From positions 3,598,001 to 3,662,000 of the forward strand of contig CM119372.1 in the NCBI GenBank assembly GCA_051294905.1: DNA of 64,000 bases, in the 5' to 3' direction. A program made the position numbers and the translations under genes. Source of the stretch: Botryllus schlosseri (lineage: Eukaryota). Shown piece after piece: positions 42,958 to 53,759 of this stretch. Each line of letters begins with the position of its first letter. Position 1 is the stretch's first letter. The notes beneath the pieces are model-generated. The model ran no database searches, was not told the origin of the DNA, and saw only the letters and a program-made list of their open reading frames with translations.

Positions 42958-45182
42958 AATTAGAGCTTAATGTCTCTGATGATCTGTATAGAAGTACAGC
43001 TAAGGTGAGCTAACCAATCGTCTTTGTGCTTGGCTATACAATACTTATCGCGAGAAGCTGTTGCCTTGGGTGAAGTTCTTCGTAACAGATATATGCTCAA
43101 TACAATCAGTTTATTCAGACGTTTGCAGTAGTTGCGTATAGAGTCTCATAATCAAAAGTAATCTCTCACGCGTGTTACATACACTTATATAGAGTGTCAA
43201 GACATCACAACAAGAAGTAGTTTCTTATTCGAGACATAGCGGAATATCATGGACGAGTGATCACAGCTGGATAGCTACACTTCCTTCTCGCGTAAAGTGT
43301 TCGTTGAACTTCTTAATACGGCTACTTGCTCTGTTGAGTTGAGTTTTAACGATACCATCTACATGCAAACCGACGGTGTAGCTATGGGTAGCCCTCTTGG
43401 CCCGATTTTAGCCAATACATTTGTGGGATTCCATGAAAACAGACTTTTCGCCGCAGATGAAACCATGTCGACGACACCTTCGTTATCTGTCAAAATGAGA
43501 CGGAGTTCGATGACTTCTTTGATAAGTTGAATTCTCTACGCTCGTCTTTAAAATTCACATTTGAAAAAGAGCGTGCTAACTCGTTACCATTCTTAGACGT
43601 TCTAGTGGAAAAACGGGATATTAGCTTTGTCACTTCGGTTTACCGGAAGCCAACGTTTACAGGGCATTATATACGCTGGAATTCTTTTAGCCCGAATCGC
43701 CGTAAACTAAATTTGATTGGCACGTTGGTGCACAGAGCCTTGATGATTTGTTCGGATGTAAAATTAAACGTGGAGCTAGAATATATCCGCAAAATTCTAA
43801 TCGATAACGGGTACCCCGAACACATCATCAAGAGTTCTGTGGACAGAAAACTCAGTAATTTCAATCCCAACAAATCACATAACACGAACACACGGTCTGA
43901 GGAAAATGTATATATACATTTACCGTGGCTGGGCCACATCTCTTCCCGGTTTGAAAAGCAATGGATTTCTGCTGTAAATCGCTGTTACGATAACGTAAAA
44001 ACTAATGTTGTGTTTACCACCAAACAATTGCTTCCTGCTTCTCAACAAAGCAATATAGTCTATGGTTTCAAGTGCCCCTGTGATTGTCGGTACGTGGGAA
44101 AAACAACTCAGCGCTTGCAGGAACGCATCAAACAACATGTTCCGAGCGTTATTAGATCACGCACATTGGACTCTCGCGAAGACGCAGCCGTAACTGATCT
44201 GCGATTACTAGAACGTAATCAGGCCATGGCTATGAACTCTGCCATCGGCAAGCATTTGGCTGAGAATGCAACTTGAGCTTAAAAACCATCGCGATGAAAG
44301 ATTTTCTATTTTAGGTAGAGGCCGCACTAATTTTCACCTGTCTGCACTGGAATCGACTTATATTAAAATCCACCGACCGCGCTTGTGTCAGCAGAAGGAA
44401 GTTTTAGTGAATCTAAAAATTGGCCACTAGCTGCGCTCGCAGTTTGCCTTAATCCAAATCCAAATCCAAAAGTTTTGAATTTTCAATTCCATGTCCAAGT
44501 CTAATCCGATTCTAACTTGATATTCAGTAAAAATGCTAATTTTTGCAAGGGAGACATTGGAAATTTTTCTTTCACAACCAACAATTCTCTTGATTTAAGA
44601 TAACTTAGCCAAGGGCTGCACCACTCATGTTTATTGGCACCGAGTGTACCATAGTGTAGTTTAACATAAGTACAATATTAACTGATCTGCATATAGTTTG
44701 TGGCTATACGCCACACGACATGTCAATCTCCCAGAAAATCAGTAAATCTAATCCAAATCCTAATCCGCTCATAAAAAACTCTAATCCTAAGCCAATCCAA
44801 ATCCGACAAAGTTTCACGAATCCGTTTTTTTTTTCTAATCCCAATCCTAATATATGTTCATCTCTGCCAAATAAGACAATATGTTTGAACCATAGTGTCC
44901 TATATAGTGTGGATCAGACATGGGGTGTGATTACTTCATGAATGTTATCGATTGCGATGACGATTACTTCTGACTATCGCGATTACGATTACAATTACGA
45001 TTACAGCAAAATCAGGCAGTATAGTCGATTAGGTTTACGATTACATAGCAAAAATAATCACGATTACATTTATTTTGCTTCTTAAAATTTTCTTTGAACA
45101 CATATTGGAAGGCAATATGACGACTGTGATGAAAAAGTTCTCATGAGAGAGCAACGTTCTTGTTTAACGAGACGTCATGACG

Positions 45183-48528: not shown

Positions 48529-49412
48529 TCAAGGTTTTCCCTTCAAATCACCACGTGTACCCTGGCTTCCTTTATTTGACTCTCTTCCTTTCCGAAGCTT
48601 GTTAACTAGCTTCTTTGTGAAGGAGTGACCCAACACTGTAAGAAATAAGCCAATGGCATAGTCTATCACTAGTTTGGAATGGACACACGTTGCTCTGTTG
48701 ATGCTGCTTCTGAAGTTGAATACGTATGAACTTTTGACAACTCTGTCCTGCAAAATTGAAAAGTTCATTAACTTTGAGGATTTGCTGCATTCCCTCGTAA
48801 ACTCTCTGTAGACTCTCCTAAGAAGAAAGAGCAGTTCTGAGCTTGGATATACAAGCGCCCCAGCCTTGCGCTCCATCAGGGGGTTAACTTGCCAGTGTTA
48901 TTTATAAGATATTCAAGCAACTGGTCATTAAATTTTCGAATTGCCTTTCTCAAAGTAAAGCCAGCCATGTATTCTAAAATATCGCTCTCCCTTTCAGAAA
49001 TACTGGCAGAGACCAATGACTCGGGCTGGGGTGGATTCATTCCATTATCAATTATTTTTTCCATGAGCTTGAGTAAAAATTTGGCAGAGGAAAGCCTGTC
49101 GTTTGATTTTGTAAATAATATTGGATCACCGCAAACCTTACTGTAACTCATCACAATATCATCTGGATTTCTAGTGGAATTCATACTGGTAATCCATCCC
49201 GTAGCTAGTTCAATACCTTTTTCAGATAGTTCTGGTGGGTCTATGAACTCCAATGAGCGCAGCAATGGTTCAAGATCCACTGGTTGCTGAATAATATTTG
49301 GAACAGATATGGTGTCCATGCTTTCATCAAAGTCGTTGAAGAGAAGTTCATGGACAATTTCCAGGGGAATATCGTACCATTCTTCAACAACGTCACTAAC
49401 TTGCGAGGCCAT
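48529..49412 (-). CDS. Second gene of the P-type element (about 290 aa, one frameshift), resembling the P-transposase C-terminal region
   Basis: ORFs 48876-49412 and 48529-48876 meet at a C5 run/TGATG; motifs LEYMAGFTLRK, MERKAGALVYPS, C.H..VI...I.LFLTV.GHSFTK. Confidence 0.6.
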
Positions 49413-50470
49413 AATTTCAATAGAGATACAGTATAAATGAGTAAGCCGTGTACCTGGTGAAATTAAAATAATAATAATACAGCACTACAGACACTACAGT
49501 CGATGTTCAACTTAATCACAACTGTATACTACATGAAAAGTAATCTAGACAAGCTACGATAATAATAACACTTATGTGCAACTGATAAATCGCTCCTCAA
49601 AAGATTTGGTGTTCTAAACTTAGAAGATATGAGGAAGCTAGAAATTGCCAAGTTTATGTATTAACCCGCTACGTGTGCTTACGTTAGCCGGAGCATCACG
49701 GCAAACAACCGAAACATTCTGGCTGCGATGACTTGTCATTCAACCGTATCTGATTGACAGGCCACGCAGTTACCGTTCTATCCCATTCTGTTTTCCATGG
49801 ACACTATGCTTGAACGATTATGATTAATTTTTCCGCTGTTTCCGCGTTTTAGAGTTGCTATGCGCTAGCGCTCTGTGCAGTGTGCATAAAGCTTCAAAGG
49901 TCAACGACTGGAAGGGAAGTTCCGCTTTAAGCCGTGCCCGCTTTTTCTACAGGGTTGGCTTGCTCAAAAAGAGATCGGTTTTGTTCAAAATAAGGTCACC
50001 CCACTATCAAGGATTATTGTGCCATTAGGGTTAGAGTGAGGGTGACTGGTGTAAGTATCCGACCCTGTCCTGTGGATATACTTTCAGGAATCAGCTGTAT
50101 CCTGTATTAGGGTTAGGGATATTTGGATTGGAGTTGGGTTGCGTTAGGGTATCCCAAGACTAGGGTTGGAGGGGATAGACGTTGTGGACTCTATATAAGG
50201 AAAGGAACTAACCAAAATTTGTCCATTTTCATAACAAGGAGTTGGAATTCTGAATCCAATGATATTATTATTGTAGGTCGTGTTTTGCAGTTTTGAAAAG
50301 TGAAACCCGCTTGTGCCAAGCTGCCAACCGGTTGAACTGTGTTGTTAAAAGGTGGGAGCACTTTATTCCACCCTGCTCTTTTTTTTCAGTAACTTGTATT
50401 TAGTAGCCTTCTCAGGCAAGAGGTACAGATGCTAGACGACGAATTAGAATATGATTAACCTGATCCTAAA

Positions 50471-51892
50471 ATGACTGAAAGAATCACAAGAGAAGATTCG
50501 AGCCGTAGTGACTTGTCTGATCATCACCCAAACAGTGAGGATGAACCTGTTCTCAAGACTGATAACTGGAATATGACACGGAGAGAAATCAAACGTGTAT
50601 ACTCCACTGCTACCTTGCTGTTACATGAAACAGCATCTATCACTAGTGTTCCCCAGAGTTATGCAAATCCAAGTGTAGAACTCAACGGTGAAATAAAAGA
50701 TTTATCTGGCGGGCTATGGCCTTTCCGGGCATTCGATATTCACCAGCAAACTCTTCCTGACTTCATTGCGAATAATTCCAAGCAGCTGAATTGGTATGCA
50801 AGAGTTCGTTTAATAAAGAATATAGCATCTGCTATCTGCACTCGTCCTTGTGAAAATCACGACTCATTTTGTGGATATTTGTCTGAAGACTGTATAACAA
50901 TTAGTTGTGATGGGCAACATCGTCCATTTATTTGGAGTAGTGGGAATGATGAAAGCCAGCGCAAGATTCATATAAAAGATTTGGGACGTATATGTCATTT
51001 CATAATAACAAATGGTATCAAGTTAGGAAGCGAAATCTGTAAAGGAGACATCAAAAATTGTTTCTTGCAAGATTTCGATGAACAACGAATATCTAAGTCA
51101 ACAGAACCTGTTGAAACTGCCTATGATTTGTTGCAGCATTCCATCCACGACGAAATGGAGATCGATGAATTTTTGCAGCATCCATTTTTTTGGTCAGATA
51201 GAGAAAAAGAGGATTTCATTACTATTCTGTATGACTCTGTGGGGAGCAACGAAGGAGTCATATCTGAACTTGACGCCGATTTTGAAAGAGAGGTGTTTAG
51301 CGGGGACTGGACTCGGGTGTTGAAGCTTACATCACTAGAAAAGGATTCAGTAGCCAAAACCAAAGAGCTTAAAAAAAATCCAAATAAAAACAAGAATACT
51401 GTCGCAATGAATCTATTTGTTAACAAAGCTGATCCTGAAGCAAATATATACAAAATATACGAGTACGAGATTGATGAAAACAAGCTAATCAAGGGAAATA
51501 TGGTAGAAAAAACTGCTGGCGATTGGAAGAATATACTGGATGATCAGAATGCAGAATGTATTAATCGTCTTTGCAATGAATTGACTGACAGGCCACTCTG
51601 GGCAATGAAAGGTACTTGTGCGGTTGTTGGCGGGAAGATTATGAGAAGAATTGGTCCATTTGATGGTTACTCTTTGCACGATCTGATGAGGTTCCTCAGA
51701 AATAGAAAAGTTCACTGCTGGGAAATCAATAGCAAAACCGAACTGGAAAAGAAATACTATAAAGCGCTTGGAGGTTATTGGAATTTTTATTCAACGAGAT
51801 TTCCAAATCTACTGGTTTTTTTATACAGTCACAAGGATGCATTTCCCTACTACCAAGATGACGAACATTTAGGTAAAAAGGACACCCCATGA
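50471..51892 (+). CDS. IRE1/RNase L-like protein: degenerate kinase fold + KEN ribonuclease domain
   Basis: 473-aa open ORF. KDLGRICHFIITNG (subdomain IX), AYDLL..FLQHPFFWS..KEDFI, VFSGDW, SLHDLMRFLRNRKVH, LGGYWNFYSTRFPNLLVFLY match the IRE1/RNase L C-terminal pattern. HRD is replaced by CGY and DFG is absent. Confidence 0.85.
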   Translation: MTERITREDSSRSDLSDHHPNSEDEPVLKTDNWNMTRREIKRVYSTATLLLHETASITSVPQSYANPSVELNGEIKDLSGGLWPFRAFDIHQQTLPDFIANNSKQLNWYARVRLIKNIASAICTRPCENHDSFCGYLSEDCITISCDGQHRPFIWSSGNDESQRKIHIKDLGRICHFIITNGIKLGSEICKGDIKNCFLQDFDEQRISKSTEPVETAYDLLQHSIHDEMEIDEFLQHPFFWSDREKEDFITILYDSVGSNEGVISELDADFEREVFSGDWTRVLKLTSLEKDSVAKTKELKKNPNKNKNTVAMNLFVNKADPEANIYKIYEYEIDENKLIKGNMVEKTAGDWKNILDDQNAECINRLCNELTDRPLWAMKGTCAVVGGKIMRRIGPFDGYSLHDLMRFLRNRKVHCWEINSKTELEKKYYKALGGYWNFYSTRFPNLLVFLYSHKDAFPYYQDDEHLGKKDTP

Positions 51893-51922
51893 TGTAAGAA
51901 ATTTCCGCTACTTTCATAATAC

Positions 51923-52329
51923 TAGGGTTACCATATTTTGGAAATCTGAAAAGAGGACACTTTTTCAGACTTGCAAATCCGGTAGAGAATTCTGAAAAAA
52001 TGGTAAATTTTTCCCACTTCGTGGTCGGTTGACTGGAAAAAAGGTCAACTTCCTCGCTCACGCTCAGCGCCCAAAATACAGTTTTCCCCTACACATTGTC
52101 GGGTGGTTGACTATCAAATAAAGAAACAGAGAAGGTCAACTTTCCGCTCAGCTCCCCAAATACCCGCCGGAGCGTCACTTCGGTGCTCATTTACGGCATC
52201 TCAGTCAAATTCGGCTATAAATATGACCAAAATTCTCAAAAGAGGACAAAAGGGGGTCCTCCGGGGACACTTTCAAAAAAGTCAAAAAAGCGGACAAATC
52301 CTCTTGAAAGAGGACGTATGGTAACCCTA
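51923..52329. mobile_element. hAT-type MITE 30 bp downstream of the KEN gene stop
   Basis: TAGGGTTACCATA / TATGGTAACCCTA TIR; perfect TSD cataatac. Confidence 0.9.
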
Positions 52330-53759
52330 CATAATACTGTAGGCTATTGATTTTCAGTAATTTTTTTGTCACTTTATATCCTATATCATTAACATTGTCA
52401 TATAATGCATATTGTTATCTGCAAATATTGTTATCTACTGTATACTGTATTGACCCAAAAAATTAGGCAAACAGTTGTTTCCGAGGGCTGATTTCATAAT
52501 ATTTATAGGTATATATTTTAGATTCAACTTAAATTATAATTTAATGCATAGTTTATTTTCAGTGCTGTTTTACATATTGTGCATTCAGGAAGAATCAGCA
52601 TGGCAGAGTTTGATCAAAGCTATATATCTATCGACAATAAAATTGTTTGTTGCAGCATTGGACAGACCGGCCTAGAAGTCATTGCAAGTCAGCTGTAGTT
52701 CCGCAATTCATAACAAGTCGAATCGCCCAGTTTATTCATCCTGGGGGGGGGGGGGGTGCGAACGTTAGCTTACGAACCACCATAAATAAGAAGTTTTTAT
52801 ACTCAGTAAATAAGATGATTTTGTCATATTTCCACCCGCTTTGAAAAACAATGGATTTCCGCGGTATGTGAAGTTCATTAAAAAGATAGAAGAAAAACAA
52901 ACCATTACAAAGATAGAAAAAAAACATACACGGCACAAAGCCGACCTCTCTCTCCGCCGTCTCATGTGATCTGCTCAAAAATTGTACACGTTAGCATTTA
53001 AACAATCTCACGTGAGATACTCAGCGGACGAGGCAACACTAAACATGAGCTGCACCAGTGGTTCTTAACCTAGCCTCCGGCGCCCCCCATGGGGCGCTGG
53101 CGATTTTGAAGGGGGCGTAAACGCTGAGGGGACGCTGGGCTCAGGGGGGCGCTGATGAAAAATGGCTTCGCAGTAGATGATGTAATAGTAGGACATACCC
53201 TTAATGAATATTCAGAGCAAATTACCATTCTACAAAACATGTCAAATCGCGAAATTTTTGGTCGCGCTACTGGGCGACGTTTGCTACATATGTTCTCATA
53301 AATGTAGTGGGTTATTATAACTAATGTAAAATGAATTGTGCGTACTTTTAGATCGCCAATGTCCCGTTAAAACACTACCGTCACGCTTGCTAGGATAATT
53401 TTCAACAAAATGTTTCGAACTAATTTCCTGCAGCGTACAGTGTGTGCAAGTCGAAGAAGGAGGCACTGTATATCACTTTTGAGAGTGAGAGCCCCTTGTA
53501 CATAAAATATAAGATTTGTGCACAAAAGGAATAACTAAATATACTTGTATTTGAGAGCTACAAAATTAAGTCGTCAGAATATTTCTTCATTGTATCATAA
53601 AGGGTGATACTATATCTCGTGTTGTGATTTACAACCTCACATGAACGTTATATAATATGAGTTGCTTTGTTCGGAATACATTCATGTTAAAATTGATAAC
53701 TGGGTTCAGTACTAAATTCGGGTCCCCCGTCACTGTGAAGTTACTTCGGCACGTTTGGA

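Follow-up and report, generated by a model that had tools for sequence, protein, structure and literature searches.

A stand-alone pseudokinase-KEN protein with an insert-split nuclease domain in Botryllus schlosseri

Within a 64,000-nucleotide (nt) stretch of the genome of the tunicate Botryllus schlosseri (GenBank assembly GCA_051294905.1, contig CM119372.1, positions 3,598,001 to 3,662,000; hereafter "the window", which lies on contig C2 of the 495-Mb assembly), we analyzed an intact, intronless gene encoding a pseudokinase-KEN protein (P0001). The protein combines a degenerate kinase fold with a KEN ribonuclease (RNase) domain that keeps its catalytic motif, yet is split by a long, conserved insert at the site where yeast Ire1 carries its helix-loop element. 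The gene evolves under purifying selection and belongs to a family with relatives in other species. With moderate confidence, we consider its product a functional, cytosolic protein of ~54 kDa that would act as a dimerisation-dependent RNase effector, probably in defence or stress.

The gene and its split KEN domain

An earlier reading of the same DNA (hereafter the original prediction) had reported an uninterrupted open reading frame (ORF) of 473 codons, and the frame indeed runs from ATG to TGA without a break (Table 1). Its stop-to-stop length is 477 amino acids (aa), which places an in-frame stop four codons 5' of the ATG. Because the runner-up among the stop-to-stop frames of the whole 64-kb window reaches only 271 aa, the length of this ORF lies far above what chance would give in DNA of 39% G+C. 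The KEN assignment likewise withstood the profile check: PF06479 (Ribonuc_2-5A, the KEN domain) matches the protein at 43.8 bits (curated cut-off 23.3) with an E value of 3.4e-11, and all phmmer matches among PDB sequences (16 of 16) are IRE1. The motifs HPFFWS (aa 237-242; 51179-51196), RNRKVH and RFPNLL (aa 443-448) lie exactly where they had been placed.

What had gone unnoticed is that the KEN domain comes in two pieces (aa ~236-287 and ~394-458), with ~105 extra residues between them in both the Pfam and the PDB matches. The PF06479 match covers profile positions 53-116 of 127 only (aa 393-458), and phmmer aligns yeast Ire1 (3fbv) in two stretches, query 160-286 with chain 228-364 and query 394-453 with chain 373-430. 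In this alignment, ~105 residues of the window protein (aa 288-394) stand where yeast Ire1 has ~8 (positions 1031-1040). According to the accessible part of PMC3149027, the helix-loop element of yeast Ire1 at this site contacts substrate RNA, partly in trans across the dimer. Given its location at the helix-loop element site, the insert is the best candidate for a determinant of substrate choice, of activity gating, or of both.

Statements on the family refer to an end-to-end alignment of 12 sequences, namely the window protein, two paralogues from the same genome and nine database proteins. The long insert is conserved in 10 of these 12 members and is short in P0011 and P0012; the spacing from HPFFW to RNxxxH amounts to 160-186 residues in the ten long-insert members and, in canonical IRE1 rows, mostly to 72-78, with three outliers at 83-92. 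When the whole protein was modelled with AlphaFold2 and the 12-sequence alignment (mean predicted local distance difference test, pLDDT, 70.9; predicted template modelling score 0.71), the C-lobe of the kinase and both KEN halves came out confident, the folded part of the insert (aa 314-394) reached a pLDDT of 70-84, and residues 1-88 stayed mostly below 50. A separate model of the insert, made from an alignment of 10 sequences, scored 79.6.

Sixteen alignment columns are invariant in all 12 members (L171, L220, H237, P238, F240, K246, W280, L284, E290, L405, R410, N411, H415, W437, R443 and P445). The register against yeast Ire1 was anchored by the H1061N mutant entry 3sdj, whose changed residue is visible in the alignment, and gives R410=R1056, N411=N1057, H415=H1061 and F397=Y1043. 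KEN domains are HEPN RNases with an Rx4-6H motif as active site (accessible part of PMC3710099), and, as far as the accessible text of PMC3149027 goes, R1056 and N1057 of yeast Ire1 hold the scissile phosphate, while the rate falls at least 3e5-fold in H1061N and ~10-fold in Y1043F. All three motif residues of this site, R410, N411 and H415, are thus among the 12/12 columns. The active-site Tyr column, another point that the original prediction had missed, holds Tyr in 8 of the 12 members and Phe in the other 4, one of which is the window protein (F397). By analogy with yeast Y1043F, for which the accessible part of PMC3149027 gives the rate, such a Tyr-to-Phe exchange at the general-base position predicts a slower rather than a dead enzyme.

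Table 1. Coordinates of the gene, its protein segments and adjacent features (positions in the window)
Feature	Position	Strand	Basis or remark
Complete single-exon coding sequence, 473 aa + stop (P0001)	50471..51892	+	end-to-end alignment with homologues of 471 and 488 aa
Acidic, low-confidence N-terminus with vestigial kinase N-lobe (few strands), aa 1-88	50471..50734	+	pLDDT <50 at 1-23, 26-35 and 39-88
Kinase C-lobe remnant (putative pseudokinase), aa 89-235	50735..51175	+	family profile vs generic kinases ~27-35 bits; VIA Z ~13 to kinase domains
Degenerate catalytic loop FCGYLSEDCITI, aa 133-144	50867..50902	+	replaces HRDLKPxN; catalytic Asp and Lys lost, no DFG after it
KEN N-terminal half (HPFFW ... 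GDW), aa 236-287	51176..51331	+	phmmer vs 3fbv; H237, P238, F240, K246, W280, L284 invariant 12/12
Lys-rich linker (isoelectric point 9.9) opening the insertion, aa 288-313	51332..51409	+	model and composition
Folded alpha/beta insert, aa 314-394	51410..51652	+	helix, long beta-hairpin, three helices, second hairpin; at IRE1 helix-loop element site
KEN C-terminal half with active site, aa 395-473	51653..51889	+	PF06479 aa 393-458; 3fbv chain 373-430 = query 394-453
F397 at the yeast Ire1 Y1043 position (general acid/base partner)	51659..51661	+	3fbv alignment; the genome's own IRE1 has Tyr here
R410-N411-R-K-V-H415, HEPN/KEN Rx4H catalytic motif	51698..51715	+	aligned with yeast R1056, N1057, H1061
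Conserved upstream element, TTTTGCAG then GAAAAGTGAAAC	50278..50308	+	27/31 identical to L002 though the proteins are 42% identical
High-copy repeat, presumed 3' untranslated region	51922..52510		~30 nt past the stop; depth jumps, loose ends at 51922/51923 and 51967/51969
202-aa frame with weak P-element-transposase C-terminal similarity, transposon remnant	48876..49484	-	PF12596 18.5 bits, below cut-off

Kinase remnant, family and selection

Immediately N-terminal to the KEN domain lies a kinase-fold domain: the family profile matches kinase C-lobes, and kinase plus KEN of IRE1 align with the model at a Z of 20. The degeneracy that the original prediction had seen in it is real. The window protein reads FCGYLSEDC where the genome's own IRE1, which also keeps its DFG, has HRDVKPSN; FCGYLSEDCITI occupies the HRDLKPxN position, DFG is absent, and of the activation segment only ~10 residues are left, counted from the DFG position to the D-I-x-x-L-G helix. 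Neither a Gly-rich loop nor the conserved beta3 Lys is recognisable in the window protein within the family alignment, and VIA alignments to IRE1 begin only at model residue 22-53. Judged from these motifs, the kinase part would amount to a C-lobe scaffold with an N-lobe that is vestigial, a point absent from the original prediction; it would be devoid of phosphotransfer, and nucleotide binding is probably absent as well.

The description of the protein as stand-alone and sensor-less also stood. It has no hydrophobic or transmembrane (TM) segment (the maximal 19-residue Kyte-Doolittle mean is 0.74; isoelectric point of the protein 5.6), Pfam finds no domain besides KEN and no ankyrin match even at E <= 10, its nearest homologues (E <= 1e-10) measure 106-501 aa, and a search for relatives among longer proteins returned none. 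Overall, HMMER against 1.84 billion representative sequences yielded 44 proteins at E <= 1e-3, of which 10 reached E <= 1e-10 and 2 even E <= 1e-30. Full-length homologues were found at 73% and 41% identity, the former intact, and a word-index search with the 12-sequence alignment gave four proteins, that is, three already in the set and the IRE1-like P0038. The sole named members are the Styela clava "uncharacterized proteins" XP_077970632.1 (401 aa) and XP_039251687.1 (377 aa), which share the clade and the stand-alone architecture of the window protein. Both are distant relatives, with 36% and 30% identity over partial matches, motif spacings of 103 and 102, short inserts and no functional annotation.

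To place these proteins, we built a tree of 47 rows, for which 294 alignment columns were kept (quick search in IQ-TREE, Shimodaira-Hasegawa-like approximate likelihood ratio test [SH-aLRT] as sole support, midpoint root), with 13 fragmentary or low-complexity matches omitted and vertebrate RNase L and the Oikopleura solo KEN proteins outside it. A single clade of 15 rows, supported at SH-aLRT 98, unites the 12 family rows with L018, P0019 and P0021; IRE1 of the same genome lies among the other animal IRE1 sequences, and the remaining KEN families of the genome fall into further groups. The window protein shares with its clade a length of 380-500 aa, a degenerate kinase and an insert-split KEN domain. 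These proteins constitute a small, rare, conserved and lineage-restricted family of stand-alone proteins of that length, which had escaped the original prediction and has been seen so far only in sea-squirt-like genomes.

In B. schlosseri itself, intact paralogues reside on contig C16 (L002; 489 aa, 42% identity) and on C7 (L008; 436 aa, 33% identity), and a further intact relative (L018, 396 aa) has a shorter insert. Three pseudogene loci of the family carry 3-12 stops each, compared with none in the window copy. One of them, L030 (C2:3582898-3584408), lies outside the window, ~64 kb upstream on the same strand, with 59-69% protein and 73% nucleotide identity and several stops. Rather than being a one-off retrocopy, the gene is part of a family of greater age that spans several species, has paralogues both in tandem and dispersed, and includes pseudogenes.

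Regarding selection, contigs of the same organism from other runs cover 50137-51950 at ~97% identity with the frame open, and contain an in-frame insertion of 6 nt after 50533. Among the 31 listed differences within the ORF, 19 are synonymous and 12 non-synonymous, none creates a stop, and the resulting ratio of non-synonymous to synonymous polymorphism (pN/pS) is ~0.16, a value that covers these 31 differences, with 31 further ones of the covered stretch lying outside the count. Together with the intact homologue at 73% identity, this ratio argues for purifying selection.

IRE1 and RNase L are, to our knowledge, the only characterised KEN ribonucleases. To be activated, each of them needs a sensor domain of its own and a kinase fold that binds nucleotide. 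With IRE1 (ERN1/Ire1p), the window protein shares a kinase fold directly before the KEN (HEPN) RNase and the motifs HPFFW, RNxxxH and RFPxLL, and IRE1 is its best match in both sequence (113 bits with the family profile) and fold (Foldseek rank 1, E ~1e-6; VIA-align Z 19-20 over 268-297 residues of the whole model). In contrast to IRE1, it lacks a luminal sensor, a TM segment, HRD, DFG and the activation segment, its N-lobe is vestigial, and it has the ~105-residue insert at the helix-loop element, a Phe at the Y1043 position and a clade of its own. RNase L, in turn, also is a cytosolic pseudokinase plus KEN, and a defence role is the natural analogy. The window protein, however, has neither an ankyrin sensor for 2'-5' oligoadenylate (2-5A) nor a nucleotide-binding N-lobe, and only 88 low-confidence residues precede the kinase remnant; besides, RNase L falls behind IRE1 in profile score (71 bits for pig, 56 for human) and in fold (Foldseek E ~8e-5; VIA-align Z 15-17, compared with ~13 for ordinary kinases), and OAS is barely detectable in the genome. 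On profile scores and the predicted structure, the family is nearer to IRE1 than to RNase L. While its core resembles both, it is a member of neither, as it departs from IRE1 in sensor, kinase motifs and phylogenetic position, and from RNase L in ankyrin repeats and similarity.

Lineage-specific expansions of solo KEN proteins without a kinase domain were reported from Oikopleura in 2013 (Anantharaman et al., PMC3710099). As described in the accessible part of that paper, these are, like the present family, tunicate expansions outside the IRE1 architecture for which a role in defence or conflict is proposed, but their description sets them apart from the window family with its C-lobe remnant and split KEN domain. 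A "RNase L" homologue is also listed among the poly(I:C)-responding genes of Nematostella (PMC8476169). To the extent that the accessible parts of these two papers tell, the notion that invertebrates are without RNase L-like genes is outdated; the original prediction had given RNase L as described from vertebrates. Our literature search found no description of a pseudokinase-KEN family with a split nuclease domain, the supplementary tables of PMC8476169 lying outside that search.

Proposed function and competing explanations

We propose that activation would occur when two KEN domains meet through dimerisation or oligomerisation, as they do in IRE1 and RNase L, and that the resulting enzyme, slower but competent, would cleave RNA independently of metal, leaving 2',3'-cyclic phosphate ends. 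The ~80-aa alpha/beta module and the Lys-rich linker might set the substrate or gate activity, thereby standing in for the missing sensor, and the biological output would most likely be a defence- or stress-related decay of RNA. A defence role seems the most economical, because the family undergoes birth and death and because KEN domains are expanded in this genome and in part fused to RNA-sensing (RIG-I-like) helicases.

Several observations weigh against this proposal. Back-to-back dimers of IRE1 and RNase L are held together in part by the N-lobe, of which the model of the window protein retains next to nothing. For the insert, no structural relative emerged from VIA (best Z 3.7; none of 48,161 chains at Z >= 5) or from Foldseek against the PDB (best E 0.78), and a query of the ESM Atlas with aa 305-396 gave no usable match. 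With an isoelectric point of 5.4 for aa 314-394, and of 5.7-9.3 for the insert region across the family, the insert is not notably basic, and so unremarkable a charge lends no support to simple RNA binding. Moreover, four non-synonymous polymorphic or strain differences lie within the insert or close to it, and three of these (M379K, V386D and G387D) are radical; any role ascribed to this module is a guess from its position alone. In the window copy, F397 replaces the general-base Tyr; this exchange, combined with an insert in place of the helix-loop element, means that activity could be low or the function changed. Finally, bulk RNA-seq (~6% of the run read) showed depth in 2 of 11 ORF bins (0.57 and 0.26), which corresponds to a few reads, and a single-cell run had no depth over the ORF. 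Contigs from two further runs (X5 and X9) cover 50137-51950 without unique flanks, and their totals of 95 and 23 million letters, compared with a genome of 495 Mb, suggest that both are transcriptomes; the kind of run is unrecorded, and we do not count them as proof of transcription. A homodimer prediction with two copies of aa 86-468 scored 0.00 and, run without controls, counts neither way.

Part of this evidence would also fit a non-catalytic or weakly catalytic regulator that pairs through its KEN domain or C-lobe with IRE1 or with kinase-KEN-helicase proteins and tunes or caps their RNase activity, the insert blocking or reshaping the RNA face. F397 in place of the catalytic Tyr, a vestigial N-lobe, the lack of a sensor domain and the many potential KEN partners in the genome all agree with such a role, as does the replacement of an element which, in the Ire1 dimer, works in trans; according to the same accessible text (PMC3149027), a yeast heterodimer keeps its activity when one of the two active sites is dead, so that mixed dimers are plausible. 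Yet the invariance of R410, N411 and H415 throughout the family is hard to explain for a pure scaffold, the Tyr is kept in 8 of 12 members, and ~26% identity to the KEN domain of the genome's own IRE1 makes conservation of the interface doubtful, and we regard this explanation as a real, if minor, possibility. We find it quite improbable that the window copy, as one of a family with birth-and-death evolution, has lately been silenced or become dispensable, its frame still open but the gene unused. The near absence of bulk RNA-seq reads, the repeat ~30 nt past the stop, the three related pseudogene loci, including the one ~64 kb upstream, and flanks full of transposon remnants are what one would expect of such a copy, but they have to be set against a pN/pS of ~0.16 (from the 31 listed differences, none of which creates a stop), an indel that keeps the frame, an intact nearest homologue at 73% identity, and the 3-12 stops in each pseudogene where this copy has none.

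We give even less credit to a tunicate counterpart of RNase L that would be activated by OAS-made 2-5A, which we judge very improbable although the protein shares the cytosolic pseudokinase-KEN core and RNase L appears among its structural matches (Z 16-17). The OAS partner that the original prediction had entertained found little backing: a six-frame search, which can miss many-exon genes, returned a single PF10421 (OAS1_C) match of 27.2 bits broken by three internal stops. Activation by 2-5A is unlikely given this weak and interrupted match, the missing ankyrin repeats and the lack of a usable, or even recognisable, N-lobe, and the profile scores point in the same direction (113 bits for IRE1, 71 and 56 for RNase L). 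A terminal exon of canonical IRE1, which the original prediction had named as a refuting finding, or a fresh retrocopy of that gene is refuted and retains next to no credence. Canonical IRE1 is a separate gene on C16 (2.82 Mb; L029:3142-6735, minus strand), one open frame of 1198 aa with a signal-like N-terminus, luminal part, TM segment, HRD, DFG, RNKKHH and a KEN match of 142 bits. The window protein is 23-26% identical to it (~26% in the KEN domain), has the in-frame stop upstream of its ATG, and is split from it by its own clade at SH-aLRT 98. As IRE1 itself occupies one open frame, a KEN gene of this genome cannot be recognised as a retrocopy by its lack of introns.

Returning to the dimerisation-dependent RNase effector that we favour, two bolder versions of it can be envisaged, which we hold to be rather unlikely: the insert might be a new sensor or substrate selector, making the protein a self-contained, minimal sensor-effector RNase, or the family might serve as trans-acting RNase partner of the kinase-KEN-RIG-I-like helicase proteins. 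If true, RNA sensing in tunicates would be linked directly to the decay of RNA by KEN domains, in a pathway that parallels OAS-RNase L with different parts. We know of no interferon system in tunicates, the closest invertebrate relatives of vertebrates. In any case, with the catalytic motif kept, the kinase apparently reduced to a scaffold, the sensor gone and a new module at the site of RNA grip, the family offers a natural experiment on the minimal needs of a KEN RNase. What makes it worth attention is the insert at the RNA-binding site and the genomic context, the gene itself being one member of an unannotated family.

Other KEN genes and the surroundings of the gene

The genome contains at least 25 PF06479 matches. 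Two single-ORF genes, L022:3796-7281 (C7:13.61 Mb) and L023:3828-7247 (C14:12.37 Mb), encode proteins of 1162 and 1140 aa that comprise an IRE1-like kinase, a full KEN domain, a DEAD/ResIII helicase and a Cys-rich C-terminus, which at C7 resembles the RIG-I C-terminal domain (19.5 bits, below cut-off). In a multi-exon tandem pair at C2:8.945-8.962 Mb (L016, L032, L019), KEN exons come ahead of DEAD/ResIII, Helicase_C (53.9 bits) and a RIG-I_C-RD match that exceeds its cut-off (30.1 bits). To judge from this domain order, the kinase-KEN-helicase genes would in effect be RIG-I-like receptors with a kinase-RNase ahead of the helicase; our literature search found no description of a KEN-RIG-I-like fusion. 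A scan for a true RNase L gene around three multi-exon KEN loci covered 113 frames (>= 55 aa), none of which contained ankyrin repeats at E <= 0.001. Together, the at least 25 KEN loci and the fusions to RIG-I-like helicases suggest that innate immunity in tunicates has an arm based on RNA decay that awaits exploration.

Split KEN domains occur in further pseudokinase-KEN families of this genome, too. A cluster of pseudokinase-KEN frames of 590-650 aa at C3:13.05-13.79 Mb (L026-L028) is split at the same site with a spacing of 140-206, and frames of 1014 aa at C1:29.03 Mb (L024) and 871 aa at C11:0.75 Mb (L025) are split by 435-547 residues with coiled-coil-looking inserts. The C3 cluster, L024 and L025 all carry a common, unannotated N-terminal domain.

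Paralogous loci of the window family have flanks in common, namely ~136 nt upstream of the ATG and ~100 nt past the end of the ORF. In a family without introns, such shared flanks do not tell whether the copies arose by DNA duplication or by retroposition; the ORF of the window copy has no poly(A) tract after it. A block at 52514-52667 of the window sits ~0-115 nt after the ORF in L030 and L003, and its displacement here implies that a repeat of ~600 bp was inserted ~30 nt after the stop of the window copy, with which the depth jumps at 51922/51923 fit. Contig word depth over this repeat (51922-52510) climbs to ~11,000 in one run, and the repeat is abundant in RNA runs. A single contig connects 50166 with 51922 via 32 other letters, its shorter side spanning only 23 letters.

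On the 5' side, the 31-nt block that is conserved between the window copy and L002 sits ~1.17 kb 5' of the ATG in the latter. An 18-mer from it is rare, with 12 genome matches at <= 1 mismatch compared with 4 for a control. The block reads as a candidate splice acceptor, with TTTTGCAG at 50285-50292 as the putative cis- or trans-acceptor, and its second half resembles an IRF/ISRE-type site (interferon regulatory factor/interferon-stimulated response element). Degenerate TTAGGG-like (telomere-type) repeats occupy 50030-50180, just 5' of the gene, and contigs of other runs diverge upstream of 50137.

The "decayed DNA" that the original prediction had seen around the gene was confirmed in part, in that the window does contain traces of mobile elements, several of which are weak matches, besides the high-copy repeat 3' of the stop. 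These include a weak GIY-YIG frame at 43461-44276 on the plus strand, presumably Penelope-like, a weak frame with similarity to the C-terminus of P-element transposase at 48529-49484 on the minus strand and, at 452-2738 on the minus strand, a reverse transcriptase RNase H fragment (37 bits) next to frames of zinc-knuckle and endonuclease-like type.

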